13,511 bases of DNA from a virus (IMGVR_UViG_2711768010_000006); one strand, 5' to 3'; counted from the first letter of the stretch, positions 3,427 to 13,511 are shown. Numbers and translations: made by a program. Notes: a model not told the origin generated them from the letters alone.

Positions 3427-4170
3427 ATGACAGAGACAGAATCAGCGATTCTGGCGCACGCCCGGCGATGTGCTCCAGCGGAGTCGTGCGGCTTCGTGGT
3501 AAGAACGCCGGAGGGGGAAAGATATTTCCCCTGCGTGAATATCTCCGGTGAGCCGGAGGCGTATTTCCGTATGTCGCCGGAAGACTGGCTGCAGGCAGAG
3601 ATGCAGGGTGAGATTGTGGCACTGGTCCACAGCCACCCCGGTGGTCTGCCCTGGCTGAGTGAGGCCGACCGGCGGCTGCAGGTGCAGAGTGATTTGCCGT
3701 GGTGGCTGGTCTGCCGGGGGGCGATTCACAAGTTCCGCTGTGTGCCACATCTTACCGGGCGGCGCTTTGAGCACGGGGTGACGGACTGTTACACGCTGTT
3801 CCGGGATGCTTACCATCTGGCGGGGATTGAGATGCCGGATTTTCATCGTGAGGATGACTGGTGGCGTCACGGTCAGAATCTCTATCTGGATAATCTGGAG
3901 GCCACAGGGCTGTATCAGGTGCCGTTGTCAGCGGCGCAGCCGGGCGATGTGCTGCTGTGCTGTTTTGGTTCATCGGTGCCGAATCATGCCGCCATTTACT
4001 GTGGTGACGGCGAGCTGCTGCACCATATTCCTGAACAACTGAGCAAACGAGAGAGGTATACCGACAAATGGCAGCGACGCACACACTCCCTCTGGCGTCA
4101 CCGGGCATGGCACGCATCTGCCTTTACGGGGATTTGCAACGATTTGGCCGCCGCATCGACCTTCGTGTGA
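3427..4170 (+). CDS. K: Tail tip assembly protein K (lambda gpK-like; MPN/JAMM plus NlpC/P60 domains)
   Basis: 247-aa ORF starting 6 bp after the L stop. It carries an exact JAMM-type motif H-x-H-x7-S-x2-D (HSHPGGLPWLSEAD) and a downstream Cys/His set (GVTDCYTLF...NHAAIY) consistent with an NlpC/P60 fold. An internal ATG at 3571 with a GGAGG upstream would give the 199-aa form; the longer form keeps the whole MPN domain. The 3' end overlaps I by 103 bp. Confidence 0.88.
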   Translation: MTETESAILAHARRCAPAESCGFVVRTPEGERYFPCVNISGEPEAYFRMSPEDWLQAEMQGEIVALVHSHPGGLPWLSEADRRLQVQSDLPWWLVCRGAIHKFRCVPHLTGRRFEHGVTDCYTLFRDAYHLAGIEMPDFHREDDWWRHGQNLYLDNLEATGLYQVPLSAAQPGDVLLCCFGSSVPNHAAIYCGDGELLHHIPEQLSKRERYTDKWQRRTHSLWRHRAWHASAFTGICNDLAAASTFV

Positions 4171-4799: not shown

Positions 4800-7700
4800 A
4801 TGGGTAAAGGCAGCAGTAAGGGGCATACCCCGCGCGAAGCGAAGGACAACCTGAAGTCCACGCAGCTGCTGAGTGTGATCGATGCCATCAGCGAAGGGCC
4901 GGTTGAAGGTCCGGTGGATGGATTAAAAAGCGTGCTGCTGAACAGTACGCCGGTGCTGGACAGTGAGGGGAATACCAACATCTCCGGCGTCACGGTGGTG
5001 TTCCGGGCAGGTGAGCAGGAGCAGTCACCGCCGGAGGGATTTGAATCCTCCGGCTCCGAGACGGTGCTGGGTACGGAAGTGAAATATGACACGCCGATCA
5101 CCCGGACCATCACGTCGGCAAACATTGACCGACTGCGTTTTACCTTCGGTGTACAGGCACTGGTGGAAACCACCTCAAAGGGAGACAGGAATCCGTCTGA
5201 AGTTCGCCTGCTGGTTCAGATACAGCGTAACGGTGGCTGGGTGACGGAAAAAGACATCACCATTAAGGGCAAAACCACCTCGCAGTATCTGGCCTCGGTG
5301 GTGGTGGATAACCTGCCGCCGCGCCCGTTTAATATCCGGATGCGCAGGATGACGCCAGACAGCACCACAGACCAGCTGCAGAACAAAACGCTCTGGTCGT
5401 CATACACCGAAATCATCGATGTGAAACAGTGCTACCCGAACACGGCACTGGTCGGCGTACAGGTGGATTCGGAGCAGTTCGGCAGCCAGCAGGTGAGCCG
5501 TAATTATCATCTTCGCGGGCGCATTCTGCAGGTGCCGTCGAACTATAATCCGCAGACGCGGCAATACAGCGGTATCTGGGACGGAACGTTAAAACCGGCA
5601 TACAGCAACAACATGGCCTGGTGTCTGTGGGATATGCTGACCCATCCGCGCTATGGCATGGGGAAACGTCTTGGTGCGGCAGATGTGGATAAATGGGCGC
5701 TGTATGTCATCGGCCAGTACTGTGACCAGTCGGTGCCGGACGGCTTTGGCAGCACGGAGCCGCGCATCACCTGTAATGCCTGGCTGACCACACAGCGCAA
5801 GGCGTGGGATGTGCTCAGTGATTTCTGCTCGGCGATGCGCTGTATGCCGGTATGGAACGGGCAGACGCTGACGTTCGTGCAGGACCGACAGTCGGATAAG
5901 GTGTGGGCCTATAACCGCAGTAATGTGGTGATGCCGGATGATGGCGCGCCGTTCCGCTACAGTTTCAGCGCCCTGAAAGACCGCCATAATGCCGTTGAGG
6001 TGAACTGGATTGACCCGGATAACGGCTGGGAGACGGCGACAGAGCTTGTGGAGGATACGCAGGCCATTGTCCGTTACGGTCGTAACGTCACGAAGATGGA
6101 TGCCTTTGGCTGTACCAGCCGGGGGCAGGCACACCGCGCCGGGCTGTGGCTGATTAAAACGGAACTGCTGGAGACGCAGACCGTGGATTTCAGCGTGGGT
6201 GCTGAAGGGCTTCGTCATGTACCGGGCGATGTCATTGAAATCTGCGATGATGACTATGCCGGTATCCGCACCGGCGGGCGCGTGCTGGCGGTGAACAGCC
6301 AGACCCGGACGCTGACGCTCGACCGTGAAATCACGCTGCCATCCTCCGGCACCACGCTGATAAGCCTGGTTGACGGGCAGGGGAATCCGGTCAGCGTGGA
6401 GGTCCAGTCCGTCACCGACGGCGTGAAGGTAAAAGTGAGCCGTGTTCCTGACGGTGTTGCTGAATACAGCGTGTGGGGGCTGAAGCTGCCGACGCTGCAC
6501 CAGCGATTGTTCCGCTGCGTGAGTATCCGTGAGAACGACGACGGCACGTATGCCATCACCGCCGTGCAGCATGTGCCGGAAAAAGAAGCCATCGTGGATA
6601 ACGGGGCGCACTTTGACGGCGACCAGAGCGGCACGGTAAATGGTGTCACGCCGCCAGCGGTGCAGCACCTGACCGCAGAAGTCACCGCAGACAGCGGGGA
6701 ATACCAGGTGCTGGCCCGCTGGGACACGCCGAAGGTGGTGAAGGGCGTGAGCTTCCTGCTTCGCCTGACCGTGGCAGCGGATGACGGCCGTGAGCGGCTG
6801 GTCAGCACGGCCCGGACGACGGAAACCACTTACCGCTTCACACAACTGGCGCTGGGGAACTACAGGCTGACAGTCCGGGCAGTAAATGCGTGGGGGCAGC
6901 AGGGCGATCCGGCGTCGGTATCGTTCCGGATTGCCGCACCGGCAGCGCTGTCGCGGATTGAGCTGACGCCGGGCTATTTTCAGATAACCGCCACGCCGCA
7001 TCTTGCGGTTTATGATCCGACGGTACAGTTTGAGTTCTGGTTCTCGGAAAAGCGGATTGCGGATATCAGGCAGGTTGAAACCACAGCACGCTATCTTGGC
7101 ACGGCGCTGTACTGGATAGCCGCCAGTATCAATATCAAACCGGGCCATGATTATTACTTTTATATCCGCAGTGTGAACACCGTTGGCAAATCGGCATTCG
7201 TGGAGGCTGTTGGTCAGCCGAGTGATGATGCATCCGGTTATCTGGATTTTTTCAAAGGCGAGATAGGGAAAACCCATCTGGCTCAGGAGCTGTGGACGCA
7301 GATTGATAACGGTCAGCTTGCGCCTGACCTGGCTGAAATCAGGACGTCCATTACGGATGTCAGCAATGAAATCACGCAGACCGTCAATAAGAAACTGGAA
7401 GACCAGAGTGCGGCAATTCAGCAGATACAGAAGGTTCAGGTTGATACAAATAATAACCTGAACAGCATGTGGGCTGTGAAGCTGCAGCAGATGCAGGACG
7501 GACGCCTTTATATCGCGGGTATTGGTGCCGGTATTGAGAACACCCCTGACGGCATGCAGAGTCAGGTGCTGCTGGCGGCGGACAGGATTGCGATGGTTAA
7601 TCCTGCGAATGGCAACACAAAACCGATGTTTGTTGGTCAGGGCGATCAGATATTCATGAACGACGTGTTCCTGAAACGCCTGACGGCCCCCACCATTACC

Positions 7701-8297
7701 AGCGGTGGAAATCCATCGGCATTTTCCCTGACTCCGGACGGAAAGCTGACCGCTAAAAATGCGGATATCAGTGGCAGTGTGAATGCGAACGCCGGGACGC
7801 TCAACAATGTCACGGTAAATGAAAACTGTACGATTAAGGGCATGCTGGAGGCGACTCAGGTCAGAGGTGACTTCGTTAAAGCTGTATCCAAATCATTTCC
7901 GAAACAGGCTGGTACGTGGGGTAACACGGAAACACCAAACGGGACGGTTACAGTCACCATAAGCGATGATCATAACTTTGACCGCCAGATTATTATTCCG
8001 CCCATTATTTTTAACGGTATAGCGTATGACGATCCGGGGAGCGGAAATAACCCAGGAGGCACGCGATACACGGGTTATGGTTTTGAAGTTCGCAAAAACG
8101 GCGTATTAATCGCATCCAGAGAAACTAAAGGTGCCATTCCCGGTAGTTACAGTGCAGTTATTGATATGCCTAGTGGTGGTGGTAGCGTCACTCTGGAGTT
8201 TAAGATTTTCCAGAAAGGCAATCAGGGGGCAGGCAATATCACCGACTGTACGGTGATTGTGACCAAAAAAGCGGCTTCCGGCATCAGTATTCGTTGA
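4800..8297 (+). CDS. J: Host specificity / central tail fibre protein J (lambda gpJ-like)
   Basis: 1165-aa ORF with a GGAG 8 nt upstream of the ATG. The N-terminal ~800 aa match my recollection of lambda gpJ closely ([34 protein letters not shown]...). A central block and the last ~150 aa look different from lambda, and the protein is 33 aa longer than lambda's 1132. Confidence 0.92.
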
Positions 8298-8319: not shown

Positions 8320-8346
8320 GGCGTCAGGAATGACGCCTTTTTTATT
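8320..8346 (+). terminator. Rho-independent terminator downstream of J
   Basis: Perfect 7-bp stem GGCGTCA / TGACGCC with a GGAA loop, followed directly by TTTTTTATT, starting 23 bp after the J stop. Confidence 0.6.
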
Positions 8347-8367: not shown

Positions 8368-8967
8368 ATGCGTAAAGTTTGTGCAGCCATTTTGTCCGCA
8401 GCCATTTGCCTGGCCGTATCCGGTGCGCCTGCATGGGCGTCTGAACATCAGTCCACGCTGAGCGCGGGGTATCTTCATGCCCGGACCAACGTTCCCGGCA
8501 GTGATGATCTGAACGGGATTAACGTGAAATACCGTTATGAGTTTACGGATACGCTGGGGCTGGTGACGTCATTCAGCTATGCAGGAGACAAGAATCGCCA
8601 GCTGACCCGTTACAGCGATACCCGCTGGCATGAAGATTCCGTTCGTAACCGCTGGTTCAGCGTAATGGCGGGGCCGTCTGTGCGCGTGAATGAATGGTTC
8701 AGCGCGTATGCGATGGCGGGTGTGGCTTACAGCCGTGTGTCGACTTTTTCCGGGGATTATATCCGCGTAACTGACAATAAGGGGAAAACGCACGATGTGC
8801 TGACCGGAAGTGATGACGGTCGCCACAGCAACACGTCTCTGGCGTGGGGAGCTGGCGTGCAGTTTAACCCGACCGAATCCGTGGCCATTGATATTGCTTA
8901 TGAAGGCTCCGGCAGTGGCGACTGGCGCACTGACGGTTTCATCGTGGGTGTCGGTTATAAATTCTGA
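8368..8967 (+). CDS. lom: Lom outer membrane protein (Ail/Lom/PagC/Rck family beta-barrel)
   Basis: 199-aa ORF with a signal peptide (MRKVCAAILSAAICLAVSGAPAWA) and a C-terminal aromatic beta-barrel end (FIVGVGYKF). It matches lambda Lom in position, between J and stf. Confidence 0.9.
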   Translation: MRKVCAAILSAAICLAVSGAPAWASEHQSTLSAGYLHARTNVPGSDDLNGINVKYRYEFTDTLGLVTSFSYAGDKNRQLTRYSDTRWHEDSVRNRWFSVMAGPSVRVNEWFSAYAMAGVAYSRVSTFSGDYIRVTDNKGKTHDVLTGSDDGRHSNTSLAWGAGVQFNPTESVAIDIAYEGSGSGDWRTDGFIVGVGYKF

Positions 8968-8993: not shown

Positions 8994-9020
8994 AGCCCGC
9001 CGGTTCAGGCGGGCTTTTTT
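8994..9020 (+). terminator. Rho-independent terminator downstream of lom
   Basis: Stem GCCCGCC / GGCGGGC with a GGTTCA loop, followed by TTTTTT, 27 bp after the lom stop and just before the stf start. Confidence 0.6.
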
Positions 9021-9031
9021 GTGGGGTGAAT

Positions 9032-12000
9032 ATGGCAGTAAAGATTTCAGGTGTACTGAAAGACGGCACAGGAAAACCGGTACAGAACTGCACAATCCAG
9101 CTGAAAGCAAAACGTAACAGCACCACGGTGGTGGTGAACACGCTGGCCTCAGAAAATCCGGATGAAGCCGGGCGTTACAGCATGGACGTTGAGTACGGNN
9201 NNNNNNNNNNNNNNNNNNNNNNNNNNNNNNNNNNNNNNNNNNNNNNNNNNNNNNNNNNNNNNNNNNNNNNNNNNNNNNNNNNNNNNNNNNNNNNNNNNNN
9301 NNNNNNNNNNNNNNNNNNNNNNNNNNNNNNNNNNNNNNNNNNNNNNNNNNNNNNNNNNNNNNNNNNNNNNNNNNNNNNNNNNNNNNNNNNNNNNNNNNNN
9401 NNNNNNNNNNNNNNNNNNNNNNNNNNNNNNGGATTCCCGCCGTCACATGCCGGGACCATCACCGTGTATGAAGATTCCCGACCCGGTACGCTGAATGATT
9501 TTCTCGGTGCCATGACGGAGGATGATGCCCGTCCGGAGGCTCTGCGCCGTTTTGAGCTGATGGTGGAAGAGGTGGCGCGTAACGCGTCCGCAGTGGCACA
9601 GAACACGGCAGCCGCGAAGAAATCAGCCAGCGATGCCAGCACATCAGCCCGTGAGGCGGCAACCCATGCGACTGATGCTGCAGATTCAGCACGTGCAGCC
9701 AGCACGTCAGCCGGACAGGCCGCTTCGTCGGCTCAGTCAGCGTCTTCCAGCGCAGGAACGGCATCAACAAAGGCCACTGAAGCCTCAAAAAGTGCTGCCG
9801 CTGCAGAGTCCTCAAAAAGCGCGGCGGCTACCAGTGCCGGTGCGGCGAAAACGTTAGAAACGAATGCGGCAGCGTCACAACAATCAGCAGCCACTTCTGC
9901 ATCCACCGCGACCACGAAAGCGTCAGAAGCTGCCACCTCAGCCCGGGATGCGTCGGCTTCAAAAGAGGCGGCAAAATCATCAGAAACGAACGCATCATCA
10001 AGCGCCAGTAGCGCAGCTTCCTCGGCGACGGCGGCTGCAAATTCTGCGAAGGCGGCCAAAACGTCCGAGACGAACGCCAGGTCTTCTGAAACGGCAGCGG
10101 GACAGAGTGCCTCAGCTGCGGCAGGCTCAAAAACAGCGGCTGCGTCGTCTGCCAGCGCCGCGTCAACAAGTGCCGGGCAGGCCTCAGCCAGTGCCACCGC
10201 CGCCGGAAAATCGGCAGAAAGCGCCGCATCATCCGCTTCAACAGCCACAACGAAGGCTGGCGAAGCCACTGAGCAGGCCACGGCAGCAGCGAGGTCAGCT
10301 TCCGCAGCGAAGACATCCGAAACGAACGCGAAAGCGTCGGAAACCCGTGCAGAATCCTCAAAAACGGCTGCCGCATCGTCCGCCAGTTCGGCGGCGTCAT
10401 CGGCATCATCGGCGTCTGCTTCAAAAGATGAGGCGACCAGACAGGCGTCAGCAGCGAAGGGCAGCGCCACGACGGCATCCACGAAGGCGACAGAGGCTGC
10501 TGGTAGTGCGACGGCAGCAGCTCAGAGCAAAAGTACGGCGGAATCTGCAGCAACGCGCGCTGAGACAGCGGCAAAACGGGCAGAGGATATTGCATCCGCC
10601 GTGGCGCTTGAGGATGCGAGCACGACGAAAAAGGGGATAGTACAGCTCAGTAGTGCGACTAACAGCACTTCCGAGTCACTGGCGGCAACACCAAAAGCCG
10701 TTAAGGCCGCGTATGACCTGGCTAACGGGAAATACACCGCACAGGATGCAACGNNNNNNNNNNNNNNNNNNNNNGTGGCTGGATTCTCAGGGAGCATTTA
10801 ACCATCCATACTGGATGTGCAAGGGTTCCTGGTCTTATGGCAATAATAAAATCATTACTGATACTGGCTGCGGTAATATTCATCTCGCCGGAGCTGTCAT
10901 TGAAGTAATGGGGATAAAGTCAGCGATGACGATCCGCATTACCACTCCGACCACATCCAGCGGTGGCGGAACAACCAACGCCCAGTTTACCTATATTAAT
11001 CACGGAACAGATTATTCACCTGGCTGGCGAAGGGACTATAACTCCAGAAATAAGCCAACGGCATCAGAGATCGGGGCGCTACCGTCAGGTGGAACAGCAG
11101 TATCATCAGTTAATCTGGCTTCAAAAGGTCGGGTAGCCGCGCTGACAGACAATACGCAGGGGGCAGCAGGTCTTGAGTTATACGAGGTGTATAACAACGG
11201 ATATCCAACAGCGTATGGAAATATCATTCACCTGAAAGGGATGACAGCCGTTGGCGAAGGTGAGTTACTCATCGGCTGGAGTGGTACAAGCGGTGCTCAT
11301 GCTCCGGCATTTATTCGTTCACGACGGGATACGACCGACGCAAACTGGTCGCCGTGGGCGCAGCTTTACACCTCGGCTCATCCTCCTGCAGAGTTTTATC
11401 CAGTCGGTGCACCAATCCCGTGGCCATCAGATACCGTTCCGTCTGGTTATGCCCTGATGCAGGGGCAGACTTTTGACAAATCTGCTTACCCGAAACTTGC
11501 AGCCGCTTATCCGTCAGGCGTGATCCCTGATATGCGTGGCTGGACGATTAAGGGCAAGCCCGCCAGTGGTCGTGCCGTATTGTCTCAGGAACAGGATGGC
11601 ATTAAATCGCACACCCACAGCGCCAGCGCATCCAGTACGGATTTGGGGACGAAAACCACATCGTCGTTTGATTACGGCACTAAATCCACGAATAACACCG
11701 GGGCGCATACGCACAGTCTGAGCGGCTCTACAAGTTCAGCTGGGGCCCACCAACATAGTCAGACTGGGCCCAGAACGAATAGCGGGAGTCAACCTACTGG
11801 AATGTTTCCGGCAGGGAGTACTCAAGTTAGCGGGACTAATCAGGTTGGTATCAGTGGCTCATTAACCAGTGGCACCTCCCAATGGGTAGGTAAATCATCT
11901 TCAGAAGGAAACCATACACACTCACTGTCCGGCACAGCAGCATCTGCGGGTGCACACGCGCATACTGTCGGTATTGGTGCTCATACGCACTCTGTTGCGA

Positions 12001-12098
12001 TTGGTTCACATGGACACACCATCACCGTTAACGCTGCTGGTAACGCGGAAAACACCGTCAAAAACATCGCATTTAACTATATTGTGAGGCTCGCATAA
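9032..12098 (+). CDS. stf: Side tail fibre protein Stf, interrupted by two runs of N with a frame change across the second
   Basis: The N-terminus from the ATG at 9032 ([33 protein letters not shown]) matches lambda Stf; the GTG at 9026 in the ORF track is a less likely start. The middle is an Ala/Ser/Thr-rich repeat, followed by a tail fibre repeat motif ([41 protein letters not shown]). The C-terminal part (ORF 10653..12098, frame 0) ends with the His-rich segment and ...[22 protein letters not shown], as in lambda Stf. The two ORFs are one gene split by the N runs. Confidence 0.75.
9199..9430. other. Run of 232 N (assembly gap or masked sequence) inside stf
   Basis: Directly visible in the sequence. 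The flanking coding frame is preserved across it. Confidence 0.99.
9598..10620 (+). repeat. Coding tandem repeat region in the stf shaft (Ala/Ser/Thr-rich, recurring K-T/S-S-E-T-N-A units)
   Basis: Motifs such as [28 protein letters not shown] and [37 protein letters not shown] recur at irregular spacing of roughly 30-80 aa. The low-complexity GC-rich DNA also opens spurious ORFs in other frames and on the minus strand (9733..10482, 9828..10595, 9864..10640). Boundaries are approximate. Confidence 0.6.
10754..10774. other. Run of 21 N inside stf, with a reading-frame change across it
   Basis: Directly visible. The upstream stf frame ends at a stop at 10799-10801, while the downstream stf frame is the one opened by ORF 10653..12098. 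Confidence 0.99.
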
Positions 12099-12679
12099 TG
12101 GCATTCAGAATGAGTGAACAAGCACGGACCATAAAAATTTATAACCTGCTGGCCGGAACTAATGAATTTATTGGTGAAGGTGACGCATATATTCCGCCTC
12201 ATACAGGTCTGCCTGCAAACAGTACCGATATTGCACCGCCAGATATTCCGGCTGGTTTCGTGGCTGTTTTCAACAGTGATGAGTCATCGTGGCATCTCGT
12301 TGAAGATCATCGGGGTAAAACGGTTTATGACGTGGCTTCCGGCGACGCGTTATTTATTTCTGAACTCGGCTCATTACCGGAAAATGTCACCTGGTTATCC
12401 CCGGAAGGGGAGTTTCAGAAGTGGAACGGCACAGCCTGGGTGAAGGATACGGAAGCAGAAAAACTGTTCCGGATCCGGGAGGCGGAAGAAACAAAAAACA
12501 GCCTGATGCAGGTAGCCAGTGAGCATATAGCGCCGCTTCAGGATGCTGTGGATCTGGAGATCGCAACGGAGAAAGAAACCTTGTTGCTGGAAGCTTGGAA
12601 AAAGTATCGGGTGTTGCTGAACCGTGTTGATACATCAACTGCACCGGATATTGAATGGCCAGTAGCACCTATAGGGTAA
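12098..12679 (+). CDS. tfa: Tail fibre assembly protein Tfa (chaperone)
   Basis: 193-aa ORF beginning [54 protein letters not shown], matching lambda Tfa. Its start shares 1 bp with the stf stop (TAATG). Confidence 0.9.
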
Positions 12680-12759
12680 ATTCGTAATGATTACCTAAAT
12701 ACGTTATTCTTTTGTTAAAAAAGTGATTTTGCTATAGGTAGGGAGTATGTTCTTGGATT

Positions 12760-12795
12760 AAGAATAAAAAATCGCCATGAAAGAGCTTCATGGCG
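12760..12795 (-). terminator. Rho-independent terminator reading on the minus strand
   Basis: Perfect 9-bp inverted repeat CGCCATGAA / TTCATGGCG (12773-12781 and 12787-12795) with a 5-nt loop. On the minus strand the hairpin is followed by ATTTTTTATTCTT (reverse complement of 12760-12772). Confidence 0.55.
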
Positions 12796-13428
12796 AGTAC
12801 ATAAACGTACAAAATGTGATGAAAGTAGAGTGGCGTAAGCCACTATATTAAGATATGACAATAGCGAAGAAAAGTAAATAACATTTTATGGACGTTTAAT
12901 TGTTAATTATAAAAACTAGAGTGCCCGATATTGTTTATCTTGCTTTAAAATAATGTACTCAAACCAAATTTTTGAGCTAAAAGCTCAAATAATATAAATG
13001 CAATAATAATGTTTAATAAGACAATTAGCTTGCTTTGTATTTTCATTTCGGAATACTGTTAAGTAACTTTGATGACCCTAACAATAGATCGGAATTTTCT
13101 TAGAGTCAATGGTCACTGTTTTTGCTTGCAAAGCAAATGTTTTGGTGGTTATAAGTCGTCTTAATATAGTCACGCATGCAACTTGTTCCATGCGGAGATT
13201 AAAGATTGGAATATAACGCGAAGATGGAATTAAATTACATTTGCAATAATTAATTTATTATTACTCAATAATTACCGATATTATTATTGTAAATTAATCA
13301 TTAGAATGCAAAAAGAAATGTAACGGCAAAATAAGAGGACGATAGCTGAGAAAAAAGCGTGCTTTCCCAATCTGGGGCAAATCACGTCTGAATGACACCT
13401 GAAAACAGGTGGTAGCCTCAAGAAGGCT

Positions 13429-13511
13429 GGTGATGCTGCCAACTTACTGATTTAGTGTATGATGGTGTTTTTGAGGTGCTCCAGTGGCTTCTGTTTCTAT
13501 CAGCTGTCCCT
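13429..13511 (+). mobile_element. IS1 insertion sequence, left end only (continues beyond the window)
   Basis: The sequence GGTGATGCTGCCAACTTACTGATTTAGTGTATGATGGTGTTTTTGAGGTGCTCCAGTGGCTTCTGTTTCTATCAGCTGTCCCT matches, as far as I can recall it, the IS1 left terminal inverted repeat and the start of insA. Confidence 0.9.
13484..13511 (+). CDS. insA: IS1 InsA, first 9 codons only (GTG start; truncated by the window edge)
   Basis: GTG GCT TCT GTT TCT ATC AGC TGT CCC translates to MASVSISCP, the InsA N-terminus, at the expected distance from the IS1 inverted repeat. Confidence 0.7.

Follow-up and report, generated by a model that had tools for sequence, protein, structure and literature searches.

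Gene content and setting

The window (the whole 13,511-nt stretch of viral DNA analysed here, IMGVR_UViG_2711768010_000006) covers the late tail-gene end of a lambdoid prophage, which in near-identical copies from complete genomes sits at the lambda attachment site, beside ybhB and bioA. J (4800-8297) and lom (8368-8967) are followed by the side tail fibre ORFs (9026-12098, plus strand) and by the tail fibre assembly gene tfa (12098-12679, plus strand). Beyond tfa lies about 750 bp of AT-rich DNA, with a GC content of 27-34% as against about 50% in the tail genes. Its right-hand limit in the window is the left end of an IS1 (13429-13511, plus strand), identical to the annotated IS1A copy in the related sequence L001.

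Two features of the tail genes themselves deserve mention. The side tail fibre gene is divided between two ORFs that overlap in different frames (9026-10801 and 10653-12098, plus strand), whereas in close relatives it is one ORF of about 1,133 codons (L001 1038-4439); the split gene in the window may be a frameshifted or recombinant allele. A full-length match to the Rfam model IS009 (12441-12639, plus strand; 218 bits, gathering score 117) lies wholly within the tfa coding sequence, so the model seems to describe tfa-derived sequence here rather than a free-standing RNA.

A predicted terminator between tfa and IS1

The AT-rich DNA contains a minus-strand stem-loop at 12772..12796, with 10 Watson-Crick pairs, one G-U pair and a loop of 3-5 nt. 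Read on the minus strand from 12796 to 12772, it is TCGCCATGAAG-CTC-TTTCATGGCGA; a perfect 9-bp core (CGCCATGAA/TTCATGGCG) is extended to 10-11 pairs by a flanking U-A and the G-U at the top, and five of the pairs in the stem are G-C. Directly 3' of the stem is a U-tract (12762..12771, minus strand; TTTTTTATTC). The plus strand has AATAAAAAAT before the stem and GTACATAAAC after it, so the U-tract is confined to the minus strand, where the run right after the stem is UUUUUUAUUC (six U) as against GUACAUAAAC on the plus strand. A preliminary description of this DNA had reported a perfect 9-bp hairpin with a T-tract on the minus strand alone, and our reading of the sequence agrees. When folded, the minus-strand RNA gave -15.2 kcal/mol (z = -4.7 against 200 shuffles), which also suits the terminator proposed there.

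As a class, terminator-like patterns are not rare in this DNA (18 in the window, compared with 12.8 +/- 3.9 in shuffled sequences), and the hairpin at 12796..12772 has the longest stem among the 18. Of 85 related copies, 82 retain it with an unchanged 9-bp core and a T-rich tail, and these include members of a lineage that is only about 78% identical. Relatives vary in the U-tract, which reads TTTTTATTC or (A/C)TTTCTTATTC and in some of them is weaker (CUUUCUUAUU), and at the top of the stem, where the G-U becomes A-U and pairing is retained. The hairpin thus combines the features of an intrinsic terminator: a stable G+C-containing stem, an adjacent U-run and, as described below, a putative transcription unit upstream on the same strand. 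It is best read as a strand-specific intrinsic (Rho-independent) terminator that is predicted to stop leftward transcription. As a device such a terminator is ordinary. Its base lies 92 nt from the tfa stop codon, and the 3' end of tfa is found less than 400 nt away and converging in 78 of the 83 copies that could be evaluated.

A conserved 33-codon ORF upstream of the predicted terminator

No minus-strand ORF of 60 aa or more had been noted between the hairpin and IS1 in the preliminary description, and our ORF listing gave the same result. The largest there are one of 52 aa, which we set aside as it starts inside IS1, and one of 48 aa, which overlaps the hairpin. A shorter ORF of 33 codons (12945..13046, minus strand, stop codon included) would encode a YncL-like small membrane protein, MKIQSKLIVLLNIIIAFILFELLAQKFGLSTLF. 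An in-frame TAA stands five codons upstream of its ATG, and no Shine-Dalgarno motif was found in the 20 nt before the ATG, either in the window or in the divergent lineage.

We collected 60 and then 85 copies of this DNA, comprising 36 distinct sequences. The ORF was intact in 36/36 of the distinct variants and in 83/85 copies, the two exceptions being frameshifted short-read contigs. Between the window and the lineage of about 78% identity (L057/L058) there are 18 nucleotide differences in the 102 nt of the ORF, distributed 7:1:10 over the three codon positions and amounting to 7 synonymous and 5 non-synonymous codons. When 18 substitutions were placed at random 200,000 times, the frame survived in 14% of placements, and an intact frame with no more than five residue changes was obtained in only 1e-5 of them. 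The other two reading frames contain several stops. The pattern points to purifying selection at the protein level, and we therefore read the ORF as a protein-coding gene whose translation is predicted.

Other small ORFs in the region did not behave in this way. Changes in a plus-strand ORF of 24 aa (12777-12851) are mostly non-synonymous, and a minus-strand ORF of 37 aa (13191..13078), annotated in phage PhiR70_1 (L064 1899-2012), has lost its ATG in L005 and L057. A minus-strand ORF of 55 aa annotated in phage ev099 (L004 4615-4782) lies outside the part that is common to all lineages.

A minus-strand promoter between 12800 and 13428 would be expected if the transcript begins there, and a search found a predicted one. 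This sigma-70-like site, P1 (13081..13109, minus strand; TTGACT-17-TATTGT), has its -35 hexamer TTGACT at 13109..13104 and its -10 hexamer TATTGT at 13086..13081, separated by a 17-nt spacer. P1 matches 9/12 consensus positions, and shuffled sequence yields matches of this class at least as often. The -10 hexamer ends 34 nt before the ATG, and from its position we placed the start site so as to give a predicted A/U-rich 5' UTR of about 27 nt (13047..13074, minus strand). The site is present in 84/85 copies, the gene retains it in every context described below, and in the divergent lineage the orthologous TTGACT-17-TATCGT is the sole promoter-like site in 800 bp.

Upstream of P1, a block at 13150..13215 (minus strand) is 85-91% identical in all lineages, and the adjoining 13112-13149 is 52% identical in L058. 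The block, in which we found no conserved ORF, could serve as a regulator site or as a second promoter.

On the downstream side, the terminator hairpin begins 148-149 nt after the stop codon of the ORF, with spacing that is identical in 79 of the 85 copies. A second minus-strand terminator-like hairpin (12989..12971) was treated as a chance occurrence, being located within the ORF and having a stem that the divergent lineage does not preserve; apart from it, no minus-strand terminator-like site was found between the ORF and the hairpin.

The predicted peptide is distantly related to YncL

An NCBIfam search with four variants of the peptide gave a sole match, to NF000537 ("stress response membrane protein YncL"), with E values of 3e-6 to 7e-5 (1e-5 for the peptide of the window) and scores of 22.5-27.1 bits. 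NF000537 is an equivalog model with a curated cut-off of 35 bits, and YncL of Escherichia coli K-12 itself scores 68.6. Because its score falls below the cut-off, the peptide does not count as a YncL equivalog, and we class it as no more than a distant relative or paralogue. Aligned directly with K-12 YncL (MNVSSRTVVLINFFAAVGLFTLISMRFGWFI, from NC_000913.3), it matches without gaps over 28 residues with a BLOSUM62 local score of 60, which none of 100,000 composition-preserving shuffles reached; a panel of other small membrane peptides scores at most 28. Judged by these comparisons, the peptide is statistically related to YncL beyond a shared hydrophobic composition. A three-way alignment has ten invariant positions (M1, S5, L10, N12, A16, L19, F20, L22, F27 and G28).

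The peptide has a hydrophobic stretch from L7 to L23, flanked by K2/K6 and K26, and is predicted to be a single-pass small membrane protein. Searches of Pfam, PHROGs, PADLOC and PDB sequences with it gave no matches, and an exhaustive phmmer search of 1.84 billion representatives returned just the peptide itself and one frameshifted copy. A tblastn search of phage records gave no match even though mEp332 encodes the peptide, presumably because of low-complexity filtering or the shortness of the query. It is similar in length to K-12 YncL (b4598; 33 and 31 aa, respectively) and about 35% identical to it, and the two share a basic N-terminus, a single hydrophobic helix and, close to the C-terminus, a basic residue with FG after it. 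The genes differ in their surroundings. The peptide is encoded on prophage cargo DNA with a GC content of 27-34%, whereas K-12 yncL occupies the patD-ortT chromosomal locus; K-12 yncL has a Shine-Dalgarno sequence (AAGGUGG) that the prophage ORF lacks; and the prophage ORF is followed by a long conserved 3' UTR with a predicted intrinsic terminator, whereas the hairpin at K-12 yncL has no T-tract after it.

YncL is a 31-aa inner-membrane protein that is induced by heat shock and in minimal medium, and according to a recent report its overproduction depolarises the membrane and condenses the nucleoid (PMC12542507). In two of three in-vivo assays YncL behaved as a substrate of the RseP protease, but no cleavage by purified RseP was detected in vitro (PMC10470546). 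The gene described here appears to be a prophage-borne relative of this stress-induced protein, and it would provide YncL with its first known paralogue for comparative work.

Distribution and contexts of the cassette

A 749-bp region that includes the ORF recurs at 99% identity in phages mEp332, PhiR70_1 and ev099. Its first 578 bp are found at about 96% identity after tfaQ in Qin-type prophages, and the region as a whole is about 91-94% identical beside sitABCD and about 78% identical in Rac-like remnants. Promoter, ORF and terminator occur together in about 82-84 of the 85 copies, across att-lambda-type, Qin-type, sit-linked and Rac-like prophages, a distribution which suggests that the cassette moves between prophage contexts as one unit.

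Among 5,426 complete E. coli genomes, 828 (about 15%) carry the core of the cassette (12740-13110), always on the chromosome and with no annotated feature under it. One carrier strain is E. coli IAI1 (NC_011741.1:852974-853722). Among some 15 billion predicted proteins the peptide has been called as a gene on 2 contigs alone. We found no more divergent copies in GTDB species representatives, using either a peptide pattern or a 26-base DNA pattern, so that the covariation evidence is thin; metagenome and viral contigs likewise held the same three lineages and nothing more divergent. With essentially three sequence lineages, all of them within E. coli, comparative events are few. A literature search on the peptide string, and on small RNAs near tfa or sit, gave nothing relevant.

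In the sit-linked copies (L007 4001-4781; L059; L060) the cassette has the same orientation as sitD, a gene of the sitABCD iron/manganese transporter, and follows it at a distance of 235 bp; the sit locus of CFT073 is without it. No other intrinsic terminator is predicted over the roughly 700 bp that follow sitD in this lineage, and the hairpin may for that reason also catch sit read-through there, a role that would not apply to the window.

Morons are extra genes with their own promoter and terminator that are inserted between phage genes, dispensable for phage growth and unlike their neighbours in base composition; lambdoid examples include lom and bor of lambda, gp15 of HK97, and cor downstream of tail genes. 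The cassette resembles them in being an apparent promoter-gene-terminator unit of foreign base composition at the end of the tail-fibre cluster, with a product that is likewise predicted to be a membrane protein. It has a conserved promoter-like site, a predicted terminator and a low GC content, and it is absent from most lambdoid prophages. It differs from the classic morons in being much smaller, antisense to the late operon, and unannotated in the records that we examined. A second unit of this kind may be seen elsewhere in the window, where lom is flanked by strong hairpin terminators: one at 8320-8337 has T-runs on both strands and looks bidirectional, and one at 8994-9015 is G+C-rich and followed by TTTTT. 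This bracketing is the same promoter-gene-terminator moron layout as that proposed for the minus-strand cassette.

Proposed function of the locus

Comparative evidence supports the earlier suggestion that a leftward transcript ends at the hairpin. Among the possible sources proposed for it, a small-peptide mRNA from within 12796-13428 agrees best with what we found, since a conserved promoter-like site, an ORF under selection and a terminator form a cassette there. In the reading that we favour, with a probability of roughly three in four, the hairpin terminates a self-contained minus-strand moron cassette that encodes a YncL-like protein and lies downstream of, and convergent with, tfa. RNA polymerase would start at the sigma-70-type promoter at 13109..13081; transcribe a leader of about 27 nt, the 33-codon gene for a membrane protein distantly related to YncL, and a 148-nt 3' UTR; and stop at the stem-loop and U-tract (12796..12762), to give an mRNA of about 310 nt. 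Promoter use, start site, termination, translation and protein function are all predictions from sequence. The terminator would also keep transcription of the cassette from going antisense into tfa and the late operon; such a block to antisense read-through into tfa, already proposed in the preliminary description, is plausible as a side effect. By analogy with YncL, the product may be an inner-membrane protein, expressed from the lysogen, that modulates or depolarises the membrane.

On this reading, the terminator has led to a conserved and unannotated candidate small-protein gene that is carried by about 15% of complete E. coli genomes and by at least three isolated lambdoid phages. If lysogens express it, the gene would offer a compact, tractable example in which a small membrane protein carried by a phage could influence the host's stress physiology or superinfection. 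The analysis also reveals the seemingly empty AT-rich DNA after tfa to be a structured cassette, one that annotation pipelines overlook systematically.

The 3' UTR and a possible small RNA

The part of the cassette between the ORF and the terminator is unevenly conserved. The proximal 3' UTR (12851..12944, minus strand) is poorly conserved, with 65% identity and indels in L058. The distal block (12797..12850, minus strand) consists of hairpin 1 (12844..12829, GUGGC-UUAC-GCCAC), an unpaired stretch (CUCUACUUUCAUCAYAUUUU) and the short hairpin 2 (12810..12797). Together with the terminator, this block makes up 89 nt (12850..12762) that are 92-94% identical to the lineage of about 78% overall identity and are the most conserved part of the cassette; the corresponding figures are 80% for the ORF, 65% for the proximal 3' UTR and 63% for the DNA beyond the terminator. 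The predicted fold of the 89 nt (z = -6.3) begins with a 5' hairpin and, after an unpaired run, continues with a short hairpin and the terminator. That the distal 3' UTR is conserved above the level of the ORF hints at an additional or alternative function.

Because 12850..12762 is the most conserved stretch, a small RNA derived from the 3' UTR has to be considered, and we regard as possible, though unlikely, a reading in which the product of importance is a regulatory RNA of about 85-90 nt (12850..12765). Such an RNA would arise either by processing of the mRNA's 3' UTR or from a weak internal promoter, and would regulate in trans via the unpaired stretch, probably together with Hfq; a dual-function mRNA would reconcile it with the moron cassette. 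The layout of a 5' hairpin, a single-stranded region that could serve as a conserved seed, and a terminator hairpin with a U-tail is typical of Hfq-type small RNAs. Moreover, three kinds of one-sided stem change (U-A to U-G, C-G to U-G and G-U to A-U) keep pairing in the minus-strand RNA only, but three wobble-compatible events of this kind would be expected by chance about 1 time in 8, and no compensatory double change was seen. A TTTACT-17-TATCTT motif that ends near 12857 could be the internal promoter, but its -10 is not conserved, being CATCTT in L008 and L039 and TAAGTT in L057. An Rfam scan of 12000-13511 at E <= 1 gave nothing on the hairpin or 3' UTR, its only match being IS009 in tfa, and complementarity to the translation start regions of the cassette's own gene or of K-12 yncL was no better than in shuffled controls. 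Nor does the block occur apart from the ORF cassette (827 versus 828 genomes).

The high identity could also be due to recombination. L059 is a mosaic with its breakpoint at the terminator (window equivalent 12762-12772), where sequence to the right is window-like and sequence to the left L057-like, which suggests recombination at a conserved boundary. With a breakpoint at this position, part of the apparent conservation of the 3' UTR may reflect mosaic exchange at the edge of a module.

3'-UTR-derived, Hfq-dependent small RNAs are familiar from CpxQ, cut from cpxP, and SroC, from gltI. Like these, the distal 3' UTR shares the terminator hairpin and U-tail of its mRNA and has an unpaired stretch upstream; unlike them, it is a candidate put forward from conservation alone. 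A combined reading, in which the mRNA encodes the YncL-like peptide and 12850..12765 is released as a chaperone-bound small RNA, seems to us rather improbable. We give the same low credence to its corollary, that this RNA regulates genes of the host or of competing phages in trans and that the hairpin serves both as terminator and as chaperone-binding module. Should the conserved 3' UTR prove to be a small RNA, the interest of the locus could rise.

Toxin-antitoxin and DNA-level readings

We also considered that the cassette could be a type I toxin-antitoxin system, with the peptide as a membrane-depolarising toxin that is repressed by a plus-strand antisense RNA and whose mRNA ends at the hairpin. 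The peptide is small and hydrophobic and is predicted to span the membrane once; its relative YncL, when overproduced, causes depolarisation of the membrane (PMC12542507); and the missing Shine-Dalgarno motif would fit tightly restrained translation. Like the type I toxins Hok, TisB, ShoB, Ibs and Ldr, it is a small hydrophobic peptide, predicted to be membrane-bound, on mobile DNA, but it has no sequence similarity to them, and we found no antisense RNA gene that is conserved with the cassette. Transcription from a plus-strand promoter-like site at 12855..12884 would run antisense to the ORF, but the site is degraded and goes undetected in the divergent lineage, and no plus-strand terminator is conserved, the sole candidate region (13112-13149) being the poorly conserved segment next to the upstream block. 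PADLOC and Pfam gave no toxin-family match, and the predicted mRNA fold has no conserved long-range 5'-3' pairing. We find this reading improbable.

Still more doubtful is the idea that the perfect palindrome acts at the level of DNA, by binding a protein or as a conserved module boundary that promotes recombination between prophages, rather than as a working terminator. It and its flanks exceed the coding sequence in conservation, the cassette stands at the boundary between tail genes and variable cargo, and a mosaic junction falls here in L059. However, the asymmetric U-tract is on exactly the strand that has the conserved ORF and promoter upstream, the variants at the top of the stem and in hairpin 1 are mismatches in DNA or plus-strand RNA and pairs in minus-strand RNA, and the distance from stop codon to hairpin is the same in 79 copies.

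IS1 and the DNA to its right

The preliminary description had offered, as another source of the transcript, the 3' UTR of a gene that once lay to the right and is now separated or disrupted by IS1. We rejected this, because the IS1-free phages mEp332, ev099 and PhiR70_1 carry the same 749 bp and have no such minus-strand gene to the right. In these relatives the 749 bp give way to a further 750 bp or so, where minus-strand ORFs do not exceed 55 aa and the sole annotated gene is the 55-aa ORF of ev099, at the junction; the next gene to the right, on the plus strand, encodes an AraC-family regulator. Relative to mEp332, IS1 replaces about 550 bp, with junctions at positions 3749 and 4300 of the mEp332 locus. 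The broader proposal that the hairpin ends a longer leftward transcript from the right, from a gene cut by IS1 here or from the sitABCD operon elsewhere, draws on the sit-linked copies, with their same-strand sitD 235 bp away and no other predicted terminator within about 700 bp, but it is hardly credible given the plus-strand neighbour in the three phages, the lack of a minus-strand ORF above 55 aa in the replaced 550 bp, and the promoter that the cassette keeps in every context.

Two minor observations concern the DNA around IS1. The mEp332 stretch that IS1 replaces (L003 3750-4299) contains sequence like the 3' half of a tRNA (...GGTTCAAATCCCCCTCTCTCCGCCA); ARAGORN found no complete tRNA in this stretch, and the sequence may be the remnant of an old attachment site. 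The last 85 bp before IS1 in the window (13344-13428; L063 2501-2586) contain two short hairpins and have copies of 94-100% identity in several hundred further E. coli genomes, with O55:H7 and O111 strains among the matches listed; in the O55:H7 strain DEC5B, the segment lies between cargo genes for NleG-family effectors and an integrase gene.
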